From: Eledone cirrhosa
Taxonomy: Eukaryota
Assembly: GCA_964016885.1 (NCBI GenBank)
Contig: OZ024740.1
Coordinates: 351,044,001-351,108,000, forward strand
DNA length: 64,000 nt
Direction: 5' to 3'
Shown: in pieces, positions 1,109 through 40,315 of the stretch
How positions within the stretch are numbered: position 1 is the first letter of the stretch
How the letters are laid out: every line of letters starts with the position of its first letter
The notes under the pieces: model-generated
Databases searched by the model: none
What the model was told of the DNA's origin: nothing
What the model saw: the letters and a program-made list of their open reading frames with translations, nothing else
Made by a program: the position numbers and the translations under genes

Positions 1109-1309
1109 GGGGAGGGGAGAGAGAGATAGAGACCCTGTGTGAGTGCCAGAGAGAAAGTGAGAGACTATCTGTGTGCCTGTGTGAGAAGAAGAGAGAGAAA
1201 GTTAGAGAGACAGTGAGGGAGAGATCATTTGTGTGCATGCACATGTGTGTATGTGTTGTGTGTATGTGTGCGTATACGCGTGTCTTCCTCTGTGTTAATG
1301 TGTATGGTT

Positions 1310-1515
1310 ATAAGCCGCTATAATTATCCTGTAGTATTGAAGAACATAAAAGGAGTATGAACAAACTTAGGTCAAGTTAGCCATTCTATAACTAGAGATC
1401 GATAAAATGAGTACTATAATAATTAGTCAAGTCGATATTATTGACTGAAATTATTTAAAGTGCGGTCTCGCCATGAGTGCAGTCAAATGACTTAAATAAA
1501 TACAAGTATAAAAAG
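1310..1515 (+). mobile_element. degenerate SINE, related family
   Basis: GATCGATAAAATGAGTAC core and GCAGTCAAATGACT 3' region resemble the SINE body; diverged. Confidence 0.45.
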
Positions 1516-2326
1516 AAAATAGTATATAGTATATTGACAAAACTAAGTTTGATCCGAAGAAAACACAAATATTTTTCTAATATTTGACCCAAATTATTGA
1601 GATTTCTAATTTCTTTTTAATGTATGTGTGTGTGTGGGGTGGGGTGTGTGTGTGTGGGGGGGGGGGGGGGGGGGTGATTGCGTATGCTTTGCTTTTATTT
1701 TTATTTTTTTATTTCTATTTATTATTTATTATTTCTTTCCGTGCTCTCTTTCATTGCTCTCAATTACTCAAATCTCAATTCTGCTTGACCTATTACACTT
1801 TCGTTTTCGATTGCTACTTGTTTGTTGCCTAGCAACACCAGGATAATTTTATAAACTTGGATTTATGCATTGATCTGATTTGGCTGATTCTGGACTATTT
1901 TACAAAGTGCCAACATCTTATCTTTCATTTCAATTCTCATTGATTTCGGAATATTTAGATGAAGAAATATCAGATTGTTTACTTTCCTGCGCTTCTTTGT
2001 CATTTAAATAATTGTTATGGTTTTTAATACTTGTTTACTTTTGTAATAACATTCGCGATATTTATTTATGCTCTTTAACGTCCATAGGTCAAATCTTGCC
2101 GAATGCGTTTTTGATTTTTAACATGTTTGGATCCGTTAAAATAAGTATCGTTTAAGTAATGGGGTCCATGTAAGGAACTATATCTCAAACTGTTAGACGT
2201 TGTGCCTATATTAGAAATCTATATTTTCATTTCAATTTTTCCAAATATTCCGTTGCGTTTCGGTTTTTCTGGGGCGTTTTGCCCCATTTTGCTTTTGTGA
2301 TTTGCACACACACACACACACACACA

Positions 2327-2389
<63 letters not shown>

Positions 2390-2400
2390 TGCACACACAC

Positions 2401-2431
<31 letters not shown>

Positions 2432-2585
2432 ATGAAAAATTAGAAATTAGAAGTTAGTATTATACGTCATCAGTCGTATATATATATATATATACGAACA
2501 GAAGTTACGTTTTCTTAGTCGAATTCCACTCCCTTGTCTTTAGATTGGGTTACCTCGGATACGTAACCTTATTACATAAAGATGA

Positions 2586-2662
2586 TGTCTGATGATATTG
2601 CGTGACCGGTTACGTGATTAGACAATCACGTAGCCACGATCGTCATTGAAATATATATCACA
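2586..2662 (+). ncRNA. type I hammerhead ribozyme motif
   Basis: stem I TGT/ACA; CTGATGA 2589-2595; long stem II with hairpin GGTTACGTGATT/AATCACGTAGCC; GAAA-TATATA-TC (palindromic stem III, AUC triplet). Confidence 0.65.
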
Positions 2663-2759
2663 GCTTTGTTAATAAAGGATTCTTTCTCATCTACAATGAA
2701 CTTCTCATTTTCCTTATTCTCTCTCTCTATGTGTATGTGTGTGTGTGTGCGTGTGTTTG

Positions 2760-2800
<41 letters not shown>

Positions 2801-2815
2801 GTTTGTACATGTGTT

Positions 2816-2877
<62 letters not shown>

Positions 2878-3189
2878 TGCGCGCGCTTATATACGTCCAA
2901 GGATTCGAAGAAAGTCTCCAAGCCACGCACCAAAATTGAAACGAAAATAAGTTGATGATAAACATTGCATGGTCGATTTAGACGGCAATCGACTGAAAGA
3001 TCTTGGGATTGCTTCGGCAGCAGTGATCACAAAGGGATACTAAAGCATTGATGATCTCAGGCTAAGACCAAGCTGGGCTAAATAGATATATCATCTTGGT
3101 GAATGTGTGATGTGCTGTCTGTGTGGAATTTATGCAGTTGGTATTGTTAACATAGTGAACGCGAAAATTGCTAACTTAAAAATATTATA

Positions 3190-3620
3190 AAAGAAGACAT
3201 GACAAGGTTTGTATATACCAGCATGTCCCCAAAAGTGTCTTTGGTAACAGAGACAAACCAAAATACTCTGGGACTTCACTACCTAAAGACACCGCAGACT
3301 TTAACACAACAGACCTGATATTGTAGTTACGTTCAGAAATATCTATGAATATCTGATTATTGATTACCATACCAGGAGACCACAACAAAGCTTTGAAAGA
3401 AATTGAAAAATAACAAAAGTATACTGACTCGAAGATTGAAATTGCACAAATACGGCCAATAATACCTACCACCATCAAAATAATTTCTGTTGTCATCAGA
3501 ACTTTAGGTTCAATACTGAGCGGGTATTTGAAGCAAATATACCTCGATTCACAAATAGCTCCCTTACAAAGACTGCCCAGTTGGGTACTGTACATGTACT
3601 GTGTCTCTAGGGCAGTAGAT
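3190..3620 (+). pseudogene. decayed restriction-like endonuclease end of an R4/Dong-type non-LTR retrotransposon
   Basis: Frame-broken ILWDF, HNRPDIVV, LIID, IPGDHN, KEIEK, KYTD..IEIA motifs. Confidence 0.7.
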
Positions 3621-3746
3621 TACCCAGTAATTATCATATTAACAATTCAAAACATCGATAATATAATAATTTCTATTATGTATATAATGTGGGTGTGTGT
3701 GTTTTGTGCGCATATATATATATATACGCACACACACGCACGCATG

Positions 3747-3808
<62 letters not shown>

Positions 3809-3945
3809 CTATTTAAGTAGCTATGCTGTGTTGAGTAGAAATCTACTTGAATACTTTTACTTTTATAACATCGTCTCACACCAACGTCCCTGTTTCTTGC
3901 TCTCGTTTTCTCTTTCTCTCTCTCTTACACTCTCTATTACTGTAT

Positions 3946-4044
<99 letters not shown>

Positions 4045-4737
4045 GGGGGGAGCGAGAAAGAGAGGGAAGAGAGGGAGAGTTAGAAATATAGATATGCATA
4101 CATACATTCATGCATACATAGATAAAATTATGGCAACGACATTTTCAGAGTGGTATTTCGAATATGTGGCATTAACAAAAATATAAACAGAAAAAAAAAA
4201 TATACACACACACATTTTTTAACATTTCTGTACATATGTATATATTGCTTGTACGTTTTAGAATCTTCAAAGCGGCATACATTCTAACATTTGTTTCCTG
4301 TTATTAATAACAGGGCACATCTACCGTCTCTGTAGATGAAGAATAATTTTCGAGAAGAATTTTCAAAGATTATATAATAGAAAACGAAATTCTACAAATA
4401 TATATGTTACGAATTAATAGAGAATGTCAGTTACAGTGATAGTAATAGATTGAATGTATTAACTTTGATAATTGTCTCTAAAAAAAATGTGAGGTAGTCT
4501 ATTTCTATCAATATTGAATAAAACTCCGTCTGTTTCGACGCCGAGTGTTTTAGTTGTTCAGTGACATTAACCTGCATTGCACAGACATGTATGTATGTAT
4601 GTATGTATTTTTTTCGTGCAATGGCCATACTCGACAACGAGGGGGCAGTCATCATCACGTATGTATGTATGTATGTATGTATGTATGTATGTATGTATGT
4701 ATGTATGTATGTATGTATGTATGCTCATGTCAGGTCA

Positions 4738-5310
4738 CCAGTTGGTGCTACTGGTAACATGTATCCCAGGACAACCTGTCTCATGGTCGGGTCGTTGGCG
4801 ACTAAACTGGCAACCCCACCAAGGTTTCTTGGTGGGGAGTGTGACTTTGGACATCCTGCAGGACTAAAACAAAACCTGTCAAATGGCAAAGGAGCTCTTA
4901 AGAGTCAATGGCTATCCAAAATCACCGGGAGAGATGACCACTTAGCCTTTGTCAAGGCAGAATTCTAGGAGAAGGAAAACTCTGATATAACACCTGCAAA
5001 CCTGATGATTTCCAATGTTGACTTCTTTTTGGTAAATATCATCTTTGTGCAGTGCCTTTGCTCACTATAAAGCTTCACGGCACAGGCATTGCTTTATATC
5101 TGGAGATCTCTCTGCACTTGTCGTCACATGGTACCATGGGCCCAGCACTATGTGTCAATAATTGTCACAAGTGTAGTGTTTGTACCAGAGTTTTCAAGTC
5201 GCTGGCTGGACTAAAAAGTCACACTCGTTCAGCGCATCGGTAGGGGTTCTCCTACATGGATATAAAGTAGTGGCCGTACTCGAAAACGAGTTGGCAGCCA
5301 CCATGTACGT
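4738..5310 (+). mobile_element. internally deleted non-autonomous RTE derivative
   Basis: RTE-like 5' head joined to C-terminal CSVCTRVFKSLAGLKSH zinc-finger coding end and 3' GGCCGTACTCGAAAACGAG..GCAGCCACC(ATGT)n; closely similar copy at 44018-44616. Confidence 0.75.
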
Positions 5311-5807
5311 ATGTATCTATGTTTCTGGGTATGTGTATATGATGTGTATATACATGCGTATATACATGTGTGTGTATCTGCGTTCAATGATAGGAGTGGA
5401 CAAACAAATGTACCCTTATCGTAATTGTCGGTGCGATTCAGCTTAATACATTGTGTGATAAGCCTGGGCCTTTCAATTACAGGGACAGTCCACTGGGGAG
5501 CTTCAAAACAGTTTCTATCCACCCAGTTTTCTTCACAAAGCTAGAGACAATCGAATGTAAATGGCAAATAACATGGGTCCATGATGCAACGCAGTGGGAT
5601 TGAACTTTAGACCTTTTGATTAAAAAGCGAACTTCTTAAGCGTTCGGCCCTGGTCAGTCCACTCCTATCATTATACACATACACACATACACACACATAC
5701 ATACACATACATACATACATGCATACATACACACACACATACATACATACATACATACATACATACATACATACATACATACATACATACATACATACAT
5801 ACATACA

Positions 5808-7125
5808 TAGTAAAGAAAATATGGTCATCAGAACTGTCAGCGTACAACAAATACATTGCCCACAATACTTATGCTGTGCCAATTCTAACGCCAACATTTG
5901 GCCTGCTGAACTAGTCATTGCAAGAACTAAGTGAGATGGATGTTAGAACTCGCAAACTTCTCAGTGTTACTGGGAACTTTAACATCAATGGTGATGTGGA
6001 TAGGCTATACTTCTCACGCAAGGAAGGTGGCCGGGGTCTAAAATCAATATTAACAACATATGAGACCCGGATAGTAACACTGAAGCAACACCTTCAACAG
6101 AGGAAAAAGGTTGGCAAACCATCTTGCCCAGGTTTATGAGCATGAAAAAAAAATATCATTAGAATAGCGACTGATCTGGAGGAGAGATATGGAATAAAGC
6201 CTGATATAAATCTCTCACCCAGAGATATCGGAAGATCCTATTCAATGTTCAAACAAGATTAAAAAATTGACCAATTTACAGAAAAAGTTGTGCATGGATA
6301 CTTGAGGCGTAAAACACAGACCATAGAGGGGATAAACCACTCAAAAAGCCTGGCATGGAGTTCCGACAAGTTTATGACATCACACCTTGAGGGATATCTC
6401 TATGCAATACAGGAACAAGAACTCCCTACCAAATATCTGCTGCACAAAACAGGAGGGCCAGCAGCTGACAATAAATGTAGGCTATGTAAAACAAAGATCG
6501 AGGATGTAAGCCACATTGTTGCCAACTGCGAAAGAATGTCATCTCGCTACTACCTCCCCATGAGACACGATGGGATAGCTAGAACCATCTGGAATGCACT
6601 TCGGAAAACAAAATTAACAACAAACGAGGAAGAATATATTGAGACAGATGGCACTAAGGAATACTGGTGGAACCTGAAAATAAAAACTGCCACCAAATTA
6701 AACCGGCCTGATATTGTTGTTTGGGACCACACATTGAAAACGTGTTCTGTTGTGGAGATCAGCTGCCCACTTGATGTAAACGTTGTCAGAAAAATACAGG
6801 AGAAGGAGGACATCTACGGACCATTGATGAGGAGTTTACAAATCCAGTATCCAAGATACGCCTTTAGCTTCATACCCATCATTATTGGAGCTACGGGTTA
6901 TATACCAACCCGCTTGGACCAAAGTATGACTGAACTTGGATTTGCGGACAAAAAGCGCAGCTCCCTAATTCATAGTCTACAAATGGCTGCGATAGCTGGC
7001 ACCTTCAAAATTTGCAAAATATTCTTGCGATTCAAGGGATGACAATTTCTTTTCTTTTACAACCTTGCCACCAGGAAGGTGGCCGGTCAAAAAAAATATA
7101 CTCGAAATTAAGAGAAAGAGATAAC
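5808..7125 (+). mobile_element. 5'-truncated R4/Dong-like RLE non-LTR retrotransposon
   Basis: DVDRLY..RKEGGRGL, AIQEQ, CCHC knuckle CRLC..HIVANC, RHD, NRPDIVVWD, EISCP; stops/frameshift upstream of 6290; flanked by (TACA)n. Confidence 0.88.
6290..7042 (+). CDS. zinc knuckle + PD-(D/E)xK restriction-like endonuclease (C-terminal fragment of LINE ORF)
   Basis: 250-aa open frame with CCHC, RHD and PD..D/E motifs. Confidence 0.85.
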   Translation: MHGYLRRKTQTIEGINHSKSLAWSSDKFMTSHLEGYLYAIQEQELPTKYLLHKTGGPAADNKCRLCKTKIEDVSHIVANCERMSSRYYLPMRHDGIARTIWNALRKTKLTTNEEEYIETDGTKEYWWNLKIKTATKLNRPDIVVWDHTLKTCSVVEISCPLDVNVVRKIQEKEDIYGPLMRSLQIQYPRYAFSFIPIIIGATGYIPTRLDQSMTELGFADKKRSSLIHSLQMAAIAGTFKICKIFLRFKG

Positions 7126-7226
7126 ATACATATATACATACAATACAAATGGTTAAATCTCCGGTAACGAAATCAGGTGGCAGTAGGAAGAAACGTAAAA
7201 GAATCGTAAAAAACGTAAAACAAAGG

Positions 7227-7257
<31 letters not shown>

Positions 7258-8774
7258 TATATATACATACATCCATATGTGTGTTTGTGTGTGTGTGTGT
7301 GTGTGTTTGTGTGTGTGTTTATGTGTGTGTTTGTGTGTTTCTGTGTGCGTTTCTGTGTTTCTGTGTGTGTTTGTGTGTATATACATATGGTTGTAAGTGT
7401 TTGTGTGTAATTTTCTTTGAGATTTGTATAAGAAATGTTTTGTAACATTTAAGTAATAAGACCGTTTTGCTTCTTTTAAGAGAGCGACATAAACATGCAA
7501 GTCTATTACTGCATGATTATATGTAGGGTATATGTACTTGTACTCATATTCTTTGTGAGCAAGTCTCCCTAATGCATAGTTGTTTGGTGTGTGTGTGTGT
7601 GTCTCATTACTCTTTATATATGTACATGACATGCACACGCTTGTGGTTGTGTATTTTTATTAATTCCAGGAAACTCAATCGGAGAATTTTTGGAATGTCT
7701 TGTTAATCTTCACTGTACCACTAGTTGAAGGATTGCGAGGATGGTTGATAGTTTAGGTTCTTCTTTCTTAAACTTCCCAAGAATTTCTAGGTCATTATTC
7801 AAATTGTTAGTTATATATGCTTGCGCGTCTATACAAATGAAAATCTATATTCAGCATATAGGAACTCTAAATCCTGCATTACCTCGCCATATATATTTTC
7901 TTTGTCGTCGATCTCAGATGATATGCTTGTAGTATCACTTTCTCTCTCTTCTCTCTAAGCGTGTATGAATTTATGTGTGTATGCATGAAAAAGTTATTTG
8001 AGTTGTAGCTACTCTAAGTGTTGAATATTAATGATACTTCACGATCTAATCATATCTGGCATTCATGACATTGAGGTAATGTGCGCAGGCACTAAGAATT
8101 ATGCGACATTTAAAAGGAAAACATACCCTCTTAGTTTCGGGGAGACAGAGGGGGTGTTTTTGAGAAACAAAATATAAGCCAGCCATACAATAATAGGAAA
8201 TATGGTTTTAAATTAAAAAAAAAATTTTTTTAAAAACATATAACGGCTGCACCTCTCAGTTTCAAGTATGTCAAACCGAAAAATGTAAGCTTCTGATTCA
8301 GCCTTGTCACATGTCAAACATGTGAGAAGAAAGCAGCCAAATATATTTGAAATATATTCCTGTGCCTGTGAATATTGTACTGCAAACTGACTGAACCTAC
8401 TTAGCTTATCAAGATATTTAACACGAAATCTCAGCTGAAGGTTAAACTAAATGCTGATTTCTGCAGTCAAATCAAGTACAATCACTAACACTCCCCACAC
8501 AGACACAAACACCTACCTCTTAAAAAGATATATTCTTACGTGTACTATTTAAAACAATGGTATTTGAAAGAAAACAACGCGAACACTCAAGATAACATTT
8601 AAACTAAATGCTGAATATCTGTATCAAGTCAAGTACATTGATTCTCTTTAAGAAAGATCTTTTTCGGTTGGCAATCACAGCCCTTTATGTGTAACTCACG
8701 CAGTCTGTTAAGCAACGAAACGGTGAAGCCCTAGAGTCATCTTAGATAAGAGAGTGTTTGCCCTAATAAGTATA

Positions 8775-8960
8775 TAATTGTTTCTACTTTTGGCACAAGG
8801 CCAGCAATTACTCAGTGTATTACTGGTACTTTATTTTATCGACCCCCGTAAGGATGAAAGGCAAAGTTAACCTCGGCGGGATTTGAACTCAGAATGGCAA
8901 GGGCCGTAACTCTATGCGTCGAAGCATGGCGTCCGACCCTCTACCGATACTGCCAATCTA
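8775..8960 (-). mobile_element. SINE family A
   Basis: Reverse complement of the 51-243 body. Confidence 0.88.
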
Positions 8961-10008
8961 CTGTGTGTACGAAGGCAATGGCTGTAAAAATATGATTTTA
9001 CTCAACACTATGCATTGAGTACTTTTTCATAATCGGAATAAACAACGTACGTATATGTGTATATATACATACATACGAATGTATGTATGTATGTAAGTAT
9101 GTATGTATGTATGTATGTATGTATGTATGTATGTATGTGTGTAAGCATGAATGTATGTATGTATGCATGTATGTATGTATGCGTGTCTGTGTACTTTTAT
9201 GCACGTGTGTACTCTTGTGTACGTATGTTCCTGTGTCTGCCAGTATGCATTTGCTGTCCTACAAACAAAATATTTGACAAAAGGATTGCCACCTTTCAAT
9301 TAACCACATAATATAGTAACACAATTAATATTGAAATCAAGGCGATTTAGTAAATCAAAGCTATAAAATGTGTTTATTAAGTTCATTATTACTACGTTAC
9401 ATTAACTGTTCGGAAGCAGTTCTATTTCTCTTTGTCTTCAGACATTCTGAATGAGATTCAAAATTATAAACAACATTTTATAATTTAGCTACTTAATGAG
9501 ATTCTTCAACCTCTTGATCATTAAAATTTCTGACGGGCATGATTTTTATGGGGAAAAAAACACTACACAAATATTTTTCAAATTTTTGTAGTAGCATCTC
9601 TATAAGCTAGACAAATTTATGAGGAGCTCGCATGTTTAAATGGGATTGTTGCATCTTTAAAATAAAGGTCGTCGACATGATCAGCTTTTATGAACATTCA
9701 TTATTTTTTTTTTTTTCAAATGTTAACAAACAATATACTATGACACTTAAATGGAAATATTATTATGAAAATAAAAATTGCTTCTATGGAACTGTCAGCG
9801 TCACGATTATACGTGAACATTATTTAGCTTTGTATGCAAATGCATTTCAAATTAGAAAATTAAATAAGAATAATCATCATGTATGAAGATATTTATAGCT
9901 ATGAGATTAAGGAGATAGCTTTGCAGCCAAGCGGTTCCAAGTTTCGTTTTACTGTGCATAATCGTGTAGACACACATATATATATAATGTATGTATGTAC
10001 ATATGTAT

Positions 10009-10044
<36 letters not shown>

Positions 10045-10249
10045 TGTGTGTGAGTGTGTGTGTGTGTGTGTATTATAAAGGGTCCGACTCTTTACAATAT
10101 AATCATACTCTACTATCCCATCTATCGAGTACTCCGTTGAATAAAGGTCTAACCAGTTTCAAACTGAAACCATCTTGATATGTATACTTATATATATATA
10201 TATATTTTAGGAATAACCAAAGAGTGCTTAGAAATACATTGTTTTATTA

Positions 10250-11049: not shown

Positions 11050-13500
11050 CAGGCGTCTAACAATGGAATACCACCCTTGTATGGGCTCCGCAAAGACCAC
11101 AAGACAGTCGACGACCCGACAACAGGACCACCAACAAGACCTGTATGCGGAGCAAATATAGCTAGCAACTACAGGATCTCCTACTTCCTCTCAATGGTTA
11201 TACGCCCCATAATGAAGATGTCCCCAGATGTATGTGACAGTACAGAGGACCTCCTCAGCAGAATCAGTTAGTGCAACAAAAACAGGAACTTATCCAACTG
11301 CATAATAGGCAGTATGGATGTGGTATCACTGTACCCATCCATTAACATTGATTTTGCTGTGGAAAAATGTGTGGAGATGATCATTGAGAGTGAGGTGGTG
11401 TTCTGCGACGTCGACACAGACGAACTGGGCCTCCTACTTAGACTTACCTACGACACTGACTACCTAGACAGCCACGACTTTAGACGTTTCTGCCTCAGTA
11501 GACCCATAAGAGGTAGACCCCCTACCATAACCTCAATGGCAAAAAAGACTCCCATGGGAAGGTGGATTGGGTGGACCAAAGGTATACGGACCCCCCCAAA
11601 ACAATGATCAGGTAAGAAAAATGGTCGCACATGCAATAGGAGCTAATATCAAAACTACCCTAAAGGGCCACATATTCAAGTTCAACGAGAAGACCTACAC
11701 CCAAATTGAGGGAGCAGCCATTGGCGTCAGCATAGCTGGTGACGTTGCCAAACTTTTTATGGTATGGTGGGGAAGGAGACTCAAAGATCTCCTTGATGAG
11801 AGCTCCATAGACCTCATCATGTACTCTCGTTATGTAGACGACATCAATATAGTAATAAGGACATCCCCACAAGAGAGCACTAACAGGTTTGATTTAGAAC
11901 GTAGCACAATGGAAAGCATCCAGCAGATAGCTAATTCCATACACCAGAGCATAACTGTAACTATCGACTACTCTTCCAAACACCCTAACAATAGACTACC
12001 TGTATTAGACACGGAACTCTGGATTAACACTATAGACGAGAGAGCCCAAATTCTCCACACACTATGCTAAACCCATGGCCTCCAAATACCTGATACTCAA
12101 AAACTCAGCAATGTCCAGTAGTGCTAAGTTTAATATCCTGATCGCAGACTTGGTACGAGTGATGAAGAACGCGTCCCACATGTGCGACCCAACAGAAATG
12201 GAAAGACACATCCAACACTTCATCAACCGCATGCAGTTCTCTGGCTACAACCAAAGAGACAGAATCAGAGTATACGAAGGAGCCACGGAGAAGTATAAGA
12301 CCCTCATAGAATTGGACATGAAAGGAATTTGCCCATTATACAGGAGCAAATCATGGAATAGCTTAGATAGGACTAGACATAAGATAGGGAAAGCCAACGC
12401 ATGGTACGACAACCAGAGATACCAGAGTGTCATGTTTGTGGACGCTACCCCTCGAGGGAAATTAGCTAACCAGCTAAAGGCCCTGAGAAAGACCCACTTA
12501 AATATTAAGGTGGTAGAAAGGCCAGGAACCACCATAAAATCCCTGATCAGCAAAACCTACCCTTTTAAAAAAACCCACTGTACTAATAGGAAATGTATCA
12601 TATGTAAACCCCCGGATAAGCCCCCGGATAAGTAAACCCCCGGATAAGCTGTAAAACTAGAAACGTAGTGTATAGCATAAGATGTACAGAGGGTACTTGC
12701 AGAAACATGACAACAACATAAATAGGCGAGACAGCTCGTAGCATAAGTGAAAGGATAGACCAGCACTGAGGGGGGGGGGGGGCTAAAAGGACAAAAAAAT
12801 GGTTCAGACGGTAATATAGAAATTAGAATAATATCTAAACATAGAAATGACCCAGCAGATAGGCAAATCAGAGAGGCCAGCGAAATAGAACTTAGAAGGC
12901 CAAGGCTAAATAGAAAAAATGAATGGAATAACAACAACACCCAAACAAACAACACTGACCTAAGAGAAGTATAAATAAATAAATAAATAAATACATACAC
13001 AAGCACAATAACAACAAAAACATATAAACACACACTAGTAAACTAAGATAGAATACAATAACCAATACACAGTCACCCAAACACGAACACACATAAAAAA
13101 ACACTATACACACACGCAAACGCATGAGCAGAGAAGACAAAAAATAAACAAATAAATAAATAAATAAACAGACTAAATAAAGATGGCGTAGGCATACAAT
13201 GCAACGGGAGGAAAAATAATAGCACCACTGACGATGTTGCAGATGTGCAACGAAAGAACCTTGTTAGACTATATATATGTGTTTGTGTCTATATTGTATC
13301 TGTATTTTTGACCGTTGGTCAGTCAATGGTAACATTGAGGACCGAATAAATTAAATTAACCGATATAAAAGACACAGAAGCGAAAACCAACCAAACAGTG
13401 AGTGTGTTCTGTTATTAATTCTGGCAATATTATTACACAAATATGACCCTCCCCAAGTTTAACAATATTTGTTTCGATAAACGATTTCATATCAAAAACC
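11050..13500 (+). mobile_element. Penelope-like element family P1 (5'-truncated, disrupted RT + GIY-YIG)
   Basis: GLRKDHK..RPVC, MDVVSLYPSI, Q.EGAAIG..IAGDVA, YSRYVDDI, LPVLD, CTNRKCIIC linker, NVVYSIRC..IGETARS; stops/frameshifts; hammerhead in 3' UTR. Confidence 0.92.
13224..13266 (+). ncRNA. hammerhead motif in P1 3' UTR (stem I/III imperfect)
   Basis: CTGACGA-T-GTTGCA-GATG-TGCAAC-GAAA. Confidence 0.6.
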
Positions 13501-32588: not shown

Positions 32589-32596
<8 letters not shown>

Positions 32597-33045
32597 CGTA
32601 AAATAAGAAAATTATAAAATTAACTTACTTACTAAAATTTCACTCCCAACTAATTAGTTTCTGAAAGGGAATAAACATACTTTCCGAAGAAGCGTACAGA
32701 GAAGCCTTTCTCGATGTCACGTGATTGATTCTTTTGAATTTGCTACCGACGCAGTAGGCAGTGATTTTCTCAATGCTTTTTTCCATCCACTGAATTATTT
32801 TTGTATAAGTTCCCTGTGTCCACGTATTGCCTGGAAAATTAGCTGAGAATAGACTTCCCAGATGACGAAAGGCTTCTCTGTACGCTTCTTCGGAAAGTAT
32901 GTTTATTCCCTTTCAGAAACTAATTAGTTGGGAGTGAAATTTTAGTAAGTAAGTTAATTTTATAATTTTCTTATTTTACGTCTCTCATGTTATTGTTCTG
33001 CAACCCCATGCATTGAACCACAAAGTTACTAAGACAAAACCTATA
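32589..33045 (+). mobile_element. inverted-repeat hammerhead element with tail
   Basis: 122-bp arms 32589-32710/32867-32988, tail to ~33045; arm-end fragment also at ~51671-51716. Confidence 0.8.
32854..32934 (+). ncRNA. type I hammerhead, U4A core variant
   Basis: CTTCC-CAGATGA-C-GAAAGG..CCTTTC-A-GAAAC-TAATTA-GTT-GGGAG. Confidence 0.6.
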
Positions 33046-33158: not shown

Positions 33159-34920
33159 TTAGTTAAGCAAAACAAGACCACACACATTTCACAAGGAAGA
33201 CATTATTAAAAGAGTGTCAACATATTTTAGTTTGATGTAAGGAATGTAGAGAATAATAATAATAATATTAATAATAATTGTTTCTACTTTTGGCACAAGG
33301 CCAGCAATTATCCAGTACATTACTGGTACTTTATTTTATCGACCCCGTAAGGATGAAAGGCAGAGTTAACCTTGGATCCTTAATATTAATAATAATAATG
33401 TCCGTTTAAAATTGTTTCGCTACTCCATATAATATTTCTGGATCAGATGACTATATATCATAATTGATCTGGTTCAGTTGAAAATAATTAACATATTTAA
33501 AAAACAGAGCGGCTCATCGGAACTTCAAAAGAATATAAATTAAAATAATTGTTTCTACTTTAGGCACAAGGCCAGCAAATTACCCAGTACATTACTGGTA
33601 CTTTATTTTATCGACCCCGTAAAGATGTAAGGCAAAGTCAACCTCGGCGGGATTTGAACTCAGATCGTAGAGGGACGTAACTATGCTGGAAAGGATGGCG
33701 TCCGATCCTCTACCGATACTGCCAATTCACCGCCCTTAATATAAATTAGAATAATGAGAGAATGTTACATAATATAATGTTCCATATATTGGTTTTTCAC
33801 TATGGTGTCTTGGTTGCATCAGTTGTCAGCCATAATCGAGCAGTACTCATCTGTCGAGGCTGCATTGTGTGAGATCTGCCTATGGGTAATATGATGGCTG
33901 CCAAAGGACATATTTACCTTACTAATTAGAGGGTGGTTTCAGGGGAAGTAACTCCTCGAGAGATTAGAAATTGTGGGTAGTTTATAGTTAAGTGCTAATT
34001 TTTAAATTGTTTTAATTGAGAGATAATGTAGGGGAGGTAACTTATAATTATCTAAGTTAGTCATAGCTATTTAACTTATTAGCTATAAGTAAAAATGGGG
34101 CTAGATGACTAAGTTGGGTCAAATATTCTATTGGCGAAGCAATTAGCCCTTCGATGTTGACAGCTAATAGTTACCTCCGTTCTATCGTTAATCGGTAGAG
34201 GTCGTGATAGAGTTATGTAATATGCTTCTGTAATACAGGGATCACAAGATTTTCTTCGTCCATTGAACGGTTGGGCCCTAGCCACGATATCCCATTTTAG
34301 TGAGTGTTGAACGTTGCTTAATTTAAGGTTTTCAATGAGCCTAGCTAGCGATGTCGAACATCTGTTGCTATGGTCTCGGAAGGAAAAAGAGTGCGTGTTA
34401 TAGCGTACATTAAAAGGGTTAGAGGTAGACCCGATATAAGAGCTGGTATTCGAAGCAGTTTTAACCGTGCACCTATAGACTATGTTGGGTGTCAGGCAGT
34501 GTCCATTTAATGGGCATGCATTAGGGTAACGGCAGTTGCAGTTGCTTCTGCGGTTAGTGAGAGTAGGGTAGTTTAACCTAATCGGTAGGTCAGTGCTAGA
34601 AGGATTAGATGGGGGAGGTGTGCTACTAGAGTAATTATTGGTGTAGTGGCCTGGTGTATTTGATAGGGGTGGTGGTACCGCGGTGTGGGAGTTATACTGT
34701 CTTAGTTTATGATGGTTACTGAATGCGATGTGGCTAGCTAGGTTAGGTGTTGTGGAAAATGAGATTTTAATGTTATTTTTATTAAAGAGTTTGGGGGGTA
34801 AATGTTTAGATAGGATAGAGAAGAAGCGTTTAGGGATATTAGTGGCTAGATTAGATGAGAATGAGGGTTTAAGCCAGGTGATATTTCTAGGTCTATTCCT
34901 TCTAGGAGTTCTAGTCTAGT
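33155..34920 (-). mobile_element. Penelope-like element family P4 (5'-truncated), with nested SINEs at ~33273-33375 and 33545-33735
   Basis: Open GIY-YIG frame 34915-34109, long 3' UTR shared with 49320-50072 and 38950-39085, hammerhead 33404-33523. Confidence 0.88.
34109..34915 (-). CDS. PLE C-terminal linker + GIY-YIG endonuclease (no start codon; absent from ORF track)
   Basis: Hand translation, 268 aa with no stop: RNITWLKPSFS..LFNKNNIKISFSTTPNL..CNCRYPNACPLNGHCL..IVYRC..YIGST..RYNTH..WDI..CDPCITE..CQH. Confidence 0.85.
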   Translation of the reverse strand, partial: TRTPRRNRPRNITWLKPSFSSNLATNIPKRFFSILSKHLPPKLFNKNNIKISFSTTPNLASHIAFSNHHKLRQYNSHTAVPPPLSNTPGHYTNNYSSSTPPPSNPSSTDLPIRLNYPTLTNRRSNCNCRYPNACPLNGHCLTPNIVYRCTVKTASNTSSYIGSTSNPFNVRYNTHSFSFRDHSNRCSTSLARLIENLKLSNVQHSLKWDIVARAQPFNGRRKSCDPCITEAYYITLSRPLPINDRTEVTISCQHRRANCFANRIFDPT

Positions 34921-35011
34921 CTAATGGCCCTTAATATGCTTTATATTTTAGCTATCTATAGAAGAAATAACGCTCGAATGATTGACACTTATATTATTGT
35001 AAATTTTTTTA

Positions 35012-35140
35012 TTTCTTGTCCAATTCTTTAAAGTTTTATCTTAGTTTCTTGTCCTATTCTTTTAAAGTTTTATCTTAGTTTCTTGTCCTATTCTTTTAAA
35101 GTTTTATTTTAGTTTCTTGTCCTGTATTTTTAAAGGTTTA
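35012..35140. repeat. 34-bp tandem repeat, ~4 copies
   Basis: TTTCTTGTCCTATTCTTTTAAAGTTTTATCTTAG. Confidence 0.92.
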
Positions 35141-35462
35141 TATTCCAACAATATTACTTTTTTTGCTGTACGCATTTTTCTATCTGGTCTACTATTTTTT
35201 AAAGCAATGCAAGCAACAACTATCTAATAATTAAATGATCATAGTGAATTACTGACAAGTGATTGACATTTTAAAGTTCTTTTGAGTATAATTGCAATCT
35301 AGTTGAGGCAACTGGCTTAATGACAAAGCTAGTAAATCATGAATGCATTTGAGATGATTAGTGCATAATAGTGAATTTGGTGAAACTTGTGCATTTCAAT
35401 GGTGTTACAACAATAGATGTAAGTTATATAGTAGTAATACTTTATCATTTTAACTTTTTAGA

Positions 35463-35825
35463 ATGGACAAAAACCCATGCAAAGAAATGACTTTGACTGC
35501 AGTGATTCTCTCCAATTTACTTACAAAGCAAAACGTGGTCAAATACCTTATCATCTCTGATAAAATGCCCATTGAATCACTGAAAATCGGATGCATGGAA
35601 TTCCTCATAAAATACACCTATGAATCGGAAGCCATCACATATATCAATGGATATAGGGAGTTGTTCACACTGGAAGACCATCACTTCATTTGTGACTTCA
35701 TCAGTTATCTCCACGATTATCTCAGACACCCAATGCCATTGATGAGAGGTGATCCAATGTGTGAGCATGTAACTAATCTTATAAAGTTGTTATCGACCAC
35801 CTGGCTTTTAGTGACATTTGACTGA
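35463..35825 (+). CDS. 120-aa protein with BACK (BTB-associated) domain-like helices
   Basis: LTKQNVVKYLIISDKMPIESLKIGCMEFL matches the pattern L..eN....L..AD......LK..c..FI of BACK/SPOP C-terminal regions; AATAAA at ~35907. Confidence 0.55.
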   Translation: MDKNPCKEMTLTAVILSNLLTKQNVVKYLIISDKMPIESLKIGCMEFLIKYTYESEAITYINGYRELFTLEDHHFICDFISYLHDYLRHPMPLMRGDPMCEHVTNLIKLLSTTWLLVTFD

Positions 35826-36001
35826 TTTGACTGATAATGATGTATTTTTAAAAAGTATGTGTACATTCTTGTTACTATTTTAAGGCAATGCAAGCAACAA
35901 CTATTTAATAAAATTTAAATTTAAAAATGACCATTGTGCATTACTGGAATGATGACATTTTTTTAAGTCACAAAATTAGTCAGTCAGCCATAGAACAAGG
36001 A

Positions 36002-36755
36002 TCAGGTGGCAAAAACATTGGCAAAAATGTGTGTCAATTTAAGATTTTCAACATTGTTCAAATGAATTATATCTGGTTTGAAGTCAGATTTGTCAAATTT
36101 TGACCAATTTTCAATGTTGTGAAGATTGGGCAAGTTCAATTTTTGAATCATTTCTTTCATGCAGTAATTAAACTTTTTCAAACGAGAATTTCTCTTGCCC
36201 AAGTCATTTTTATTTTCAATTACACTTTGTGGACGTGGAATGTCACCACTGTAGAAAATGGGTGTACAGTGGTGCTTTTCCGCTATTTTCTGTAGCCTTG
36301 CAAAGAGACTCTTCCCCTGTTTTTCCGGTTTTGTGCCTCGAATGGGCACTTTGTCCTTAATTTACAAATAAATGATTAATAAAAAATACTTGGGCAAAAA
36401 TTATTGTATTACTTTGCACAGCTTTGTAGTGCCAACGGTGCGACGAGGATTCAGATCATTAGAGCCGACATGAACCACCAATACTTTCACAAAAGGACAA
36501 CAGATAACAATGTTGGCGATTAACATTACCTGGCCCTGACAGGCCCCAGGTATACAAAATATCTAAGTATTTTTGTGGGTATGATAAGTAAATACACTTG
36601 AATTAATATTTTTATACCTTCTGGTCATTCGATTTCGCCACATTTCTAATTATTGATTTGTAAAAACTGGCATGAATGTGAATTTGATCAGTCCAATTGC
36701 CCGATTTTAGTGAAAAGTTTTGATTCGAAATGGAAATACTCCATTTCCGTGCCAT
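36002..36755 (-). CDS. three-exon SGNH/GDSL hydrolase-like gene, 213 aa (exons 36755-36618, 36562-36413, 36355-36002)
   Basis: GT-AG introns of 55 and 57 nt, both phase 0; spliced frame open; blocks KSIIRNV, CIPGA, VVHVGSND, DIIHL. Confidence 0.8.
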
Positions 36756-36844
36756 GGAAAAAATAAATAAGCCGATCAAAAAGCCGCGAAACATCATTTT
36801 TAATTAAGCGAAATTAGTGGATGCAAATCTCAGAAAATATTGTA

Positions 36845-37200
36845 CACTATTCGCACCTATCGCACTATTCGCACCTATCGGTACAAAAATATAGCGCACT
36901 ATTCGCACCTATCGGTACAAAAAATCGCACGACTGTTAATAATACTAGAAGTGCAAACTATCTGTTGAATACCTGGTATATGAAGAGCAACCGATACGAT
37001 CGGTCGGTGATCGGTCTTGAAGAAGAATGAAGAATGAAGTGAAATTTTGGTCTGGTTGTTGTCATCGGTGTTTCGCAGAGATGCCGGCATGAACAAAGGT
37101 GTCAGTGACACAAAGTTGTCCGCTTGAACAAAGGTGTCGGTCCGACAAAGGTGTCAGTCAGACAGACAGTCAGACAGTGTCACAGTCGGTGCGACAAAGG
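36845..37200. repeat. short subterminal-type repeats
   Basis: CACTATTCGCACCTATCG x3 (36845, 36863, 36897); ACAAAGGTGTC x3 (~37093-37155). Confidence 0.85.
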
Positions 37201-37369
37201 GATCGATGCGATTAAAAAAAATTTAACTCACATGTTTACCTATATTTTCGCAAACTATTGATAGATTGGTACAAAAACTAGCTTTGATAATAAACATAAA
37301 TTTTTAACGAAGTATTTAAAAAGCATTTTAGCAGTGAAAAGTGAAGTAATGTTTCACACTGACGCAAGT

Positions 37370-37490
37370 AGGGCCGTTCAGAAATGACGTAGTCAATTAG
37401 GAGGAGGGGATTCGGCGATTTGACTACATTTGACTAACGTAATCACAATCACAAGAGTTCCGCCGAAAAAAATTCGTCATTTCTGGATTA
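37370..37490. mobile_element. small MITE-like remnant (Harbinger/Kolobok-like terminus)
   Basis: AGGGCCGTTCAGAAATGACGT ... CGTCATTTCTG. Confidence 0.45.
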
Positions 37491-37800
37491 CCTCCCCTAG
37501 CGTCACGCTTACTACTCACTCACTTGAACACAAGATTTATCAGCAAACTTTGATTATAAACTTTTTCCCGCTGGACCAAATTTCTAGATTTTTAAGCCAA
37601 AAGATGCGTAATGATCTACTGTTCATGCTCATATAAGTTTTATCTCAGTTAAATAAAGTAGAGCCGCGCTGTACTTTCGTAAACAGACGATTGCCAACGA
37701 AAACACGACCACAACAATATTACTAAACGGACTACCGTCCGTTTAGGATATATTATGTTATATTTATAATGTTGAGAAGTGATACACGTGTTGATATATA

Positions 37801-39102: not shown

Positions 39103-40315
39103 GTTATACTTTGGGAGGGTCATATTGCCAACAAGAAACACACGCACCAGTTTCACTTCAATTTATTATAAATTAAATTCATAAATTTAAGAATTTATAA
39201 ATTTCTGGTTGGTTGGTTGATTCCACAACCAGATGATTGTTCATATATTGTCAAAATTCTTTTGTCACACATTCTGTGACCTCTTCAGTGACTGGGGATT
39301 CTTTTCTTTGTTTTTTTTTGTTTTGTTTTTTGTTTTTTTTTGTTTTTTTTGTGCCTCTCTTTTGTTCTGTCCTACGCCATCTTGTCTTTGTGTGTGTTGG
39401 GTGCTTAGTTTGCGCATGTGTTACATCCGGGTGTCTGTGTGTGTTTCTATTTGTTTATTTATTTGTTTAATTACATGTTACTGGTTGGTTGTTTGTTCTA
39501 TGTGTGTGTGTGTTTTAATTTTGTCCTTAATTGTAAGTTGTGATGTTGCTGTTCCATTCATGTTTTCTATTTAATTTTGGTTGGAGTTCATTTATGTTTA
39601 TTGCCTCTGTGATTTGTCTAAACATTGCGTCTTTTCTGTGTGTAGATTCTATTTTTATTTCTATGCTCTCTAATTTACCCTTATGTTCTATTTTAGCATG
39701 TTGGTGGAGTACAGATGATTCTTTACTACCTTGAAGCTCTCGCCAGTGTTCATTTATCCGTTCCCCTATACTACGAGCTGTCTCACCTATGTACACTATA
39801 TTCTTATCTCTACATTGTCCTTCAGTACATCTTATGCTATATACTACATTTCTAGTTTTACAGTTAATATGGGGGCTTAATTTACAGATTATACATTTCT
39901 TATCTATACAGGTAGGTCTTTGAAAAGGGTATGTATTACTAATAAGTGTTTTTATGGAGGTACCTGGTCTTTCTACTATCTTAATATTGAGTTTATGTTT
40001 ATCTAGGGCCCTTCTAAATGTGTAAGCTAATTCACCTCTAGGGGTTGTATCGATGAACATTACACTCTGGTATTTATTGCTATCATACCATGAGTTTATT
40101 CTATTAACCTTATTCATAGTTCTTTCTATTCTATTCCAAAATTTGCTCCTATACATGGGGCAGGTCCCATTTGTATCATTATTTACCATTTTTTCTCATT
40201 TGATTCTGGCTCCTGTGTTTCTTATTGGCAAGATGACCCTCCCAAAGTATAACAATATCGGTTTCAACACACGTTTTCAGATAAAGAATCTTTCTAAACA
40301 AATACAGAAACGAAA
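39103..40315 (-). mobile_element. Penelope-like element, P1-related, 5'-truncated with inverted 3'-end copy
   Basis: ORF 39527-40189 (CIDKKCIIC, NVVYSIRC, YIGETARS, RQITEA, LNRKHEW); end motif ATGACCCTCCCAAAGTATAAC at ~39103-39123 (-) and ~40233-40253 (+); hammerhead 39250-39292 (-) with G12A. Confidence 0.92.
39527..40189 (-). CDS. PLE linker + GIY-YIG endonuclease fragment
   Basis: 220-aa open frame homologous to the P1 C-terminus. Confidence 0.88.
   Translation of the reverse strand: MVNNDTNGTCPMYRSKFWNRIERTMNKVNRINSWYDSNKYQSVMFIDTTPRGELAYTFRRALDKHKLNIKIVERPGTSIKTLISNTYPFQRPTCIDKKCIICKLSPHINCKTRNVVYSIRCTEGQCRDKNIVYIGETARSIGERINEHWRELQGSKESSVLHQHAKIEHKGKLESIEIKIESTHRKDAMFRQITEAININELQPKLNRKHEWNSNITTYN

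Follow-up and report, generated by a model that had tools for sequence, protein, structure and literature searches.

Does a short-intron esterase gene embedded in repeat-dominated DNA of Eledone cirrhosa represent an intact gene, and what carries it? The question was raised by a locus in a 64,000-nt stretch of contig OZ024740.1 (positions 351,044,001–351,108,000; hereafter the window), where the original prediction placed an intact, spliced SGNH/GDSL hydrolase-like gene, either brought in by a DNA-level vehicle or domesticated. The frame is composed of the following parts:

36755–36618, minus strand: first piece of the reading frame, 138 nt
36563–36617, minus strand: predicted 55-nt GT-AG intron (intron 3 of the parent gene described below), GTATAA..ACTTAG
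36413–36562, minus strand: SGNH exon with the block II Gly and the block III Asn, 150 nt
36356–36412, minus strand: predicted 57-nt GT-AG intron, GTAATA..ATTAAG, in frame and with two TAA stops inside
36002–36355, minus strand: last SGNH exon, with Asp-x-x-His, 354 nt

The spliced frame and its identity

The predicted reading frame held up. The pieces of 138, 150 and 354 nt, joined over the 55- and 57-nt GT-AG gaps, gave 213 aa with no stop and with all four SGNH motifs in order, and an in-frame ATG at 36797 lengthens the frame to 227 aa. Among 200 dinucleotide-matched resamples, each allowed at most two short GT-AG introns, the longest frame was 189 aa and none came to 213 aa. At the first intron (36563–36617), the spliced product aligns across the site with a relative, P0003. 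The 57-nt intron sits in a variable loop, so homology by itself cannot fix its position; P0003 has a similar-sized insert in the same loop. Relative to the majority of 25 copies, the window copy differs at six residues, including a Gly-to-Glu change after the catalytic His.

A Pfam scan of the window exons taken singly gave no match, and exons 2–3 read through gave Lipase_GDSL_2 at an E value of 0.34 only; SGNH identity was instead reached indirectly, via P0003 and the structure 4c1b. P0003 was the one relative found among 1.84 billion representatives in a full HMMER scan (E 1.6e-4). It carries GDS, scores 20.2 bits against Pfam GDSL (curated cut-off 32.9) and matches the LINE ORF1 esterase of ZfL2-1 (PDB 4c1b) at E 2.4e-7; a two-sequence profile of P0003 and the window protein matches 4c1b at E 3.2e-9. 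The GDS of P0003 together with these matches identifies the domain as an SGNH hydrolase of the LINE ORF1 type, as the predicted likeness to CR1/L2 ORF1 esterases had implied. Word-indexed protein searches found nothing with exon 3 and returned only P0003 itself with P0003, and a metagenome scan gave 137 pattern matches, none of them confirmed. Matches in the Atlas point to GDSL-like clusters and serve as leads only. An AlphaFold model with a mean pLDDT of 47.7 was too poor for a fold search.

The carrier element and its 12.6-kb parent

Searching the genome (3.0 Gb) with the window gene yielded 346 candidates, with at least 40 matches at 98–100% identity among those listed. The 20 copies fetched with long flanks share a ~3.65-kb unit set in unrelated flanking DNA. 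The predicted gene is thus a repeat. The unit has the following features in the window:

34982–37748, minus strand: non-autonomous HLE2 Helitron, a 3.65-kb deletion derivative, delimited by dispersed copies and by alignment to the 12,628-bp parent D
37723–37748, minus strand: 5' terminus, TC and a hairpin with a 10-bp stem, preceded by the target A
37712–37724, minus strand: 13-bp asymmetric subterminal inverted repeat, seen in the sequence
34982–35188, minus strand: internal inverted copy of the element's 3'-terminal ~210 bp, at whose inner end the window copy stops
35012–35141, minus strand: 34-bp tandem repeats within this inverted copy

The window copy lacks the last ~0.9 kb and the 3' terminus, breaking off where a Penelope-type GIY-YIG fragment begins. 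The hairpin end occurs in 317 exact copies in the genome (control, 0), folds as DNA with a z score of −3.8 and is kept in sister family N/O by a compensatory change. In full copies the element ends in CTGG, the partner of the 13-bp repeat lies 31–43 bp from the 3' end, and the insertion layout is A/TC...CTGG/T, with slashes marking the element's boundaries. In the fetched DNA, each of the 36 insertions with both ends sits between an A and a T, so that the family combines the 5'-TC, the CTRR-3' and the A/T insertion of HLE1. The 3' hairpin that is a hallmark of HLE1 (16–20 nt, ~11 bp from the end) was not found at this position (z −0.5; 55 of 200 shuffles folded equally well). Joined flanks matched a paralogous empty site for 4 of the 36 insertions, with a gap-free junction in three of these four. 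A flanking repeat is absent in 10 of the 36; the other 26 show even-length repeats of 2–20 nt, as (TA)n tracts give, which were not checked individually. The family conforms in this to the lack of target-site duplication in the Helitron superfamily.

Of 20 further loci with the hairpin end, one retains the terminus alone; at the other 19 the derivative is shorter or truncated and lacks the catalytic exons. Two-ended deletion derivatives of 1.5–2.4 kb are present at 14. Because these loci were chosen for their absence from the SGNH list, they show that such derivatives spread and not what share they make up. An inverted copy of the last 190–216 bp, ~1 kb upstream, is present in all three families and in all 14 two-ended derivatives, and is missing in the short copies T and U. 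Pairing of the two copies would give the displaced strand a long stem that reaches to the terminus, and this putative fold-back may stand in for the missing 3' hairpin. An earlier reading of the hairpin as the 3' end of a DINE-1-like element was dropped once the direction of RepHel was known.

Further repeats were noted around the element. The Penelope-type GIY-YIG fragment that abuts its truncated end (34109–34915, minus strand; Pfam E 0.0095) was rejected as part of it, since other copies continue into the Helitron 3' end instead. Another Penelope-type GIY-YIG endonuclease fragment lies at 39527–40195 (minus strand; Pfam E 3.6e-5), LINE fragments with zf-RVT and weak RVT_1 matches at 6263–7042 and 11531–12070 (plus strand), and a perfect, MITE-like 122-bp inverted repeat with a 156-nt spacer at 32589–32988, beside a (TA)n tract. 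Coding-like stretches with no Pfam match occur downstream of the esterase (35457–35825, minus strand) and between the inverted arms (locus L026, 3060–3725).

The route to the parent was a genome search with DUF6570, which gave 54 matches; at several places these lie 3 kb after the hairpin end, with the SGNH exon following 5–7 kb later on that strand. A search with Helitron_like_N led to canonical HLE1 copies where the motif was read, and did not reach the parent. Parent D is a two-ended element of 12,628 bp. Its long frame encodes DUF6570 (E 1.9e-14, above cut-off), the RepHel made up of an HUH Rep (Helitron_like_N, E 4e-23) and a PIF1 helicase (E 4e-26), and a C-terminal UCH domain of the USP type. 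No unbroken RepHel frame was found in the inspected copies of the parent family.

Several features place the parent within the Helitrons. DUF6570 is a marker of HLE2, and UCH is found almost only in HLE2, according to the sections cited of PMC11417382. The RepHel motif reads EYQQRGAPHIH; Rep motif 2 is FWRLEYQQRGAPH, against IEFQKRGLPH in the HLE1 copies of this genome, and does not follow the HLE1 pattern of G-L-P without F/Y-x-R. In FWRLEYQQRGAPHIH, as motif 2 is also read, FWR is a signature described for Helentrons (PMC4067079, in part), and the residue between G and P is Ala, which is neither the Ser of Helentrons nor the Leu of Helitrons. Traits of strict Helentrons were not found: no Exo_endo_phos match for a C-terminal AP endonuclease appeared in the 13 ORFs scanned, where UCH follows the helicase, and an A/T target and a 5' hairpin occur instead of a TT target and a 3' palindrome. 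The architecture (5' hairpin before the left repeat, repeats of 12–16 nt, no 3' hairpin) is that of HLE2-reverse, in which a 5' hairpin lies ahead of short inverted repeats (as outlined in PMC11417382) and which was first seen in FoHeli3-5 (PMC5148889, in part). Judged by these sequence traits, the carrier is a Helitron of the HLE2-reverse type whose TC/CTRR ends are canonical. On the same traits, the predicted DNA-level vehicle (Helitron/Helentron) is a Helitron of the Helentron (HLE2) clade.

Two sister families, N/O and K/L/M, have RepHel proteins 83% (N) and 48% (K) identical to that of the parent, and end in CTAG, against CTGG in the window's family. The NADAR-SGNH gene described below was not detectable in either, which indicates that it is dispensable for transposition. 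A 12.8-kb sister HLE2 family (L173–L178; G000 C5:5.37 Mb, C3:72.98 Mb, C2:253.89 Mb) has copies 99.3–99.5% identical and unbroken RepHel frames of 2230–2245 aa with a UCH-like region at their end. Its 5' hairpin is long (z −9.6) and its 3' fold-back is as in the parent; the family is young and possibly active.

Other observations were made among these elements. Near its start, the RepHel frame contains a 2A-like motif (LLIIGCVELNPGP; L151, about 2330–2360), which families N/O share and which was not found in family K. It has Cys at the position of the 2A-peptide Asp; ribosome-skipping 2A peptides have Asp there. Between RepHel and the NADAR exon, parent copies A and D carry a duplicated short frame rich in Cys (L156, 3150–3359); it has no Pfam match and is possibly a further exon. 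A derivative of sister family N/O is nested inside the NADAR gene of a parent copy (L209–L210, G000 C28:136.46 Mb). Tandem parvovirus-like ORFs, two Parvo_NS1 and two PLA2-like, lie beside an HLE2 RepHel fragment (L187 1461–8901, G000 C12:9.077–9.085 Mb).

The parent NADAR-SGNH gene and the deletion junction

Downstream of RepHel, the parent carries a gene modelled as five predicted exons (191, 130, 183, 150 and 354 nt) encoding 335 aa with a canonical GDS. Its five-exon splicing is predicted. The whole gene is present in four copies, all with GT-AG at all four introns, whose ends are pyrimidine-rich; one copy is open, with Asn replacing the Asp of Asp-x-x-His, and the other three are frameshifted. 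The Ser, Gly, Asn, Asp and His of the SGNH blocks are present across the parent family.

The N-terminal part, missed by the original prediction, is a NADAR domain. Its single exons matched Pfam at E 0.003 and 0.019, and exons 1–2 read through with the intron included matched at E 9.3e-8 (32.9 bits; cut-off 35.1). The N-terminal 145 aa are 32% identical to phage YbiA (pairwise E 9e-15), aligned across introns 1 and 2. Mapped through YbiA onto 8bau, with residue roles taken from the sections cited of PMC11543638, the parent NADAR keeps E43, K50 and E125 (TVEHAYKYIK, LVED). By the same two-step alignment W89 and W133 are retained as well; the phosphate-binding residues R79, R93 and D130, seen in the Phytophthora NADAR, are missing from the parent. 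Searching the whole genome with a NADAR profile, a route limited by introns, recovered only the parent element (two matches of four candidates). With NADAR exons 1–2, a word-indexed protein search found nothing and a PDB search gave chance protease matches only (E 0.74).

P0003 has the same layout: a NADAR C-terminal motif, a linker equal in length to the parent's, then the esterase. It is 27% identical to the spliced parent over 236 columns (E 9e-20), an alignment that starts at the end of NADAR, passes GDS and reaches the last helix. Since P0003 has both domains, the NADAR-SGNH fusion exists elsewhere and is old.

Alignment to the parent resolves the first exon of the window copy into two parent places ~9 kb apart:

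36657–36797, minus strand: first 47 codons of the RepHel frame, with the ATG at 36797
36654–36656, minus strand: deletion junction at the Ser codon, ~9.0 kb gone (parent 1153 to 10136)
36618–36653, minus strand: last 12 codons of parent NADAR-SGNH exon 3

The predicted ATG at 36755 is 14 codons past the RepHel ATG, and 33 of the 46 codons of exon 1 are transposase. In parent copies G and P, ORFs of 829 and 847 aa begin with these RepHel-start codons and extend into DUF6570/Rep. In the parent, the RepHel start MARKW...HASFYKS continues KKRNY, and the esterase reads YIVGDSIIRNV. A 9-kb deletion fused the two at the catalytic Ser, so that GDS reads YKS in the window copy, where RepHel codons replace the block I strand and GDS. 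What had been taken for an altered GDS in an enzyme is a deletion scar, and exon 1 of the 'intact' gene is a deletion chimera whose first 33 codons derive from the RepHel frame. The junction falls within a short imperfect microhomology.

The genome contains 100 exact matches to the fused junction, against seven to the GDS-type exon. In run X2, contig depth is ~628 for the fused form and 25 for the GDS-type form, and the fused form also occurs in X4, the runs possibly being from the assembly's own sample. Runs X1–X4, whose kind is unstated, look like DNA, so the absence of a GT-AG joint in them was counted neither way. Among the 25 top-matching copies, the fused frame is open in 21, a splice dinucleotide is lost in five, and an open frame with all four splice dinucleotides is kept in 18. 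Distinct variants of these copies gave a pN/pS of 0.95 (48 N, 13 S). This ratio among young copies fits drift after insertion, with selection on a master copy possible. By sequence, the fused frame in the window is real but is not an intact gene.

Origin of the frame and comparison with known systems

We consider it highly likely that the window gene is the rear half of a Helitron NADAR-SGNH gene, itself predicted to be spliced, fused by deletion to the RepHel start, and a dead passenger. A 9-kb internal deletion would have joined this rear half in frame to the start of RepHel. RepHel of the parent would start with a nick at the 5' end, where TC and the hairpin lie, and would terminate at CTGG, and the shortened element would likely have been copied in trans by rolling-circle transposition; that short derivatives keep both ends points to trans copying by the parent RepHel. 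With the first strand and the G-D of GDS gone, the chimera has presumably lost esterase activity, and the copy in the window would likely be a passenger with no function. The small introns, which had been contrasted with the repeat-bloated surroundings, belong to an element-borne gene and are uninformative on the host's own intron sizes.

The fused frame might instead be a selected new gene, in which the RepHel promoter and a hydrophobic N terminus drive a working esterase that helps the short element to spread. The in-frame fusion does put Ser exactly at the nucleophile position, the fused form outnumbers the parent form 100 to 7, and the 18 copies keep their frame and splice dinucleotides. 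However, the Ser is accounted for by microhomology at the junction, neither the first strand nor G-D survives, derivatives without catalytic exons spread too (19 of the 20 loci chosen from outside the SGNH list), and pN/pS is 0.95; we regard such selection as improbable. That the window gene was domesticated, as the original prediction allowed, is scarcely credible: its frame is open and its splice sites are canonical, but it is one of ~100 near-identical dispersed copies, pN/pS over 25 copies is 0.95, and the window copy has lost the element's 3' end and carries likely damaging changes.

Were the introns unreal, the stretch would be a decayed intronless esterase broken by insertions. The in-frame 57-nt piece, in the loop where P0003 has its insert, would suit this, but four GT-AG gaps with pyrimidine-rich ends restore the 335-aa frame, their removal restores continuous alignment with intronless YbiA and P0003, and no resample reached 213 aa, which makes it very unlikely. 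A LINE or Penelope-like origin draws on the closest solved structure being a LINE ORF1 esterase, on the GIY-YIG frame that starts next door at 34915 and on the GDSL esterases carried by Terminons (PMC6431247, in part). Yet the element contains no reverse transcriptase; both ends are fixed rather than 5'-truncated; other copies run into the Helitron 3' end, not the Penelope fragment; and the hallmarks of a CR1/L2 ORF1 (a following APE-RT ORF2, variable 5' truncation) are not seen. RepHel in the parent contradicts an esterase of CR1/L2 ORF1 or Terminon-type cargo, and we give this reading almost no weight.

The deletion-derived Helitron passenger that we favour leaves the parent gene to be explained. 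NADAR enzymes strip ADP-ribose from guanine in DNA (PMC11543638, PMC11125620, in part), and the sections cited of PMC11125620 describe what NADAR domains do physiologically in animals as unclear. Ester hydrolysis and binding to acidic membranes are both described for the ZfL2-1 esterase (PMC3905857, in part). The parent gene could, tentatively, be an accessory whose NADAR strips ADP-ribose from guanine in the single-stranded intermediates of the element, DNA or RNA, with a role for the esterase alongside; the latter, of LINE type, would attach to acidic membranes or cleave off acyl groups. A neutral captured gene, an RNA substrate or a small-molecule substrate are possible alternatives. More speculatively, and with rather low probability, the old NADAR-SGNH gene would be a counter-defence, its NADAR erasing ADP-ribose marks set by a host transferase on the element's single-stranded DNA, by analogy with phage NADARs acting against DarT1, and the 3' fold-back would be a terminator replacing the missing 3' hairpin.

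Intron-bearing SGNH genes on Helitrons are already known from texim of fish Helitrons, and the new part here is the NADAR-SGNH cargo of the parent. Like the parent gene, texim is a multi-exon, multicopy, Helitron-linked SGNH gene without reverse transcriptase and related to CR1 esterases; unlike it, texim has up to 15 exons (five predicted here), lies upstream of or around the Helitron coding region (here downstream of RepHel within defined ends) and is expressed in testis. The parent gene is fused to NADAR, which the sections cited on texim do not mention (PMC4021074). The SGNH blocks of ZfL2-1 ORF1p align with the parent family. That protein is an intronless LINE ORF1 with a coiled coil, whereas the esterase here has predicted introns and sits behind NADAR on a DNA transposon (PMC3905857, in part); the domain may have had a LINE origin in the distant past.

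FoHeli3-5 of Fusarium oxysporum resemble the parent in an HLE2-type RepHel with DUF6570 and without AP endonuclease, a hairpin at the 5' end only, a length of 9–13 kb, and asymmetric inverted repeats of 13–16 bp whose 3' copy lies tens of bases in from the terminus. They end in TGCCT...CTCCTGT with no target preference reported in the sections cited, whereas the parent ends in TC...CTRR between A and T; an animal host, a USP domain fused to RepHel and an inverted 3'-end copy of ~200 bp also set the parent apart (PMC5148889, PMC11417382). The proto-Helentron of Phytophthora shares a Helentron-clade RepHel without endonuclease, a CTAG-type 3' end, A/T insertion and accessory genes; its 5' end is TT and its cargo a SET-domain gene, against 5' TC and NADAR-SGNH here (PMC4067079, in part). 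A YbiA-family NADAR on a eukaryotic transposon, as here, is described for an Ectocarpus Gypsy Pol and an oyster Tx1 ORF1. These carriers are retrotransposons, for which the sections cited mention no SGNH fusion, whereas the present one is a rolling-circle DNA element (PMC12477816). The HELIANO list of Helitron-carried domains contains neither NADAR nor SGNH, and neither a Helitron carrying NADAR nor a protein joining NADAR to SGNH was reported in the literature searched, with Repbase, Dfam and most subscription journals outside its scope. The two-domain parent gene is likely an undescribed Helitron cargo.

The fused form shows plainly how a deletion can generate, in 100 copies, what looks like an 'intact gene' and is not one. 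Its parent extends the HLE2-reverse end structure from fungi to an animal, and adds a second lineage to the texim pattern, in which a Helitron carries a LINE-type esterase with introns. A NADAR with its catalytic positions, on a transposon that moves as single-stranded DNA and beside a ubiquitin protease domain, offers a concrete substrate to test. If the counter-defence reading were true, it would imply an ADP-ribosylation defence of DNA against transposons in an animal. More broadly, the parent gene suggests that Helitrons gather enzymes that reverse host marks.
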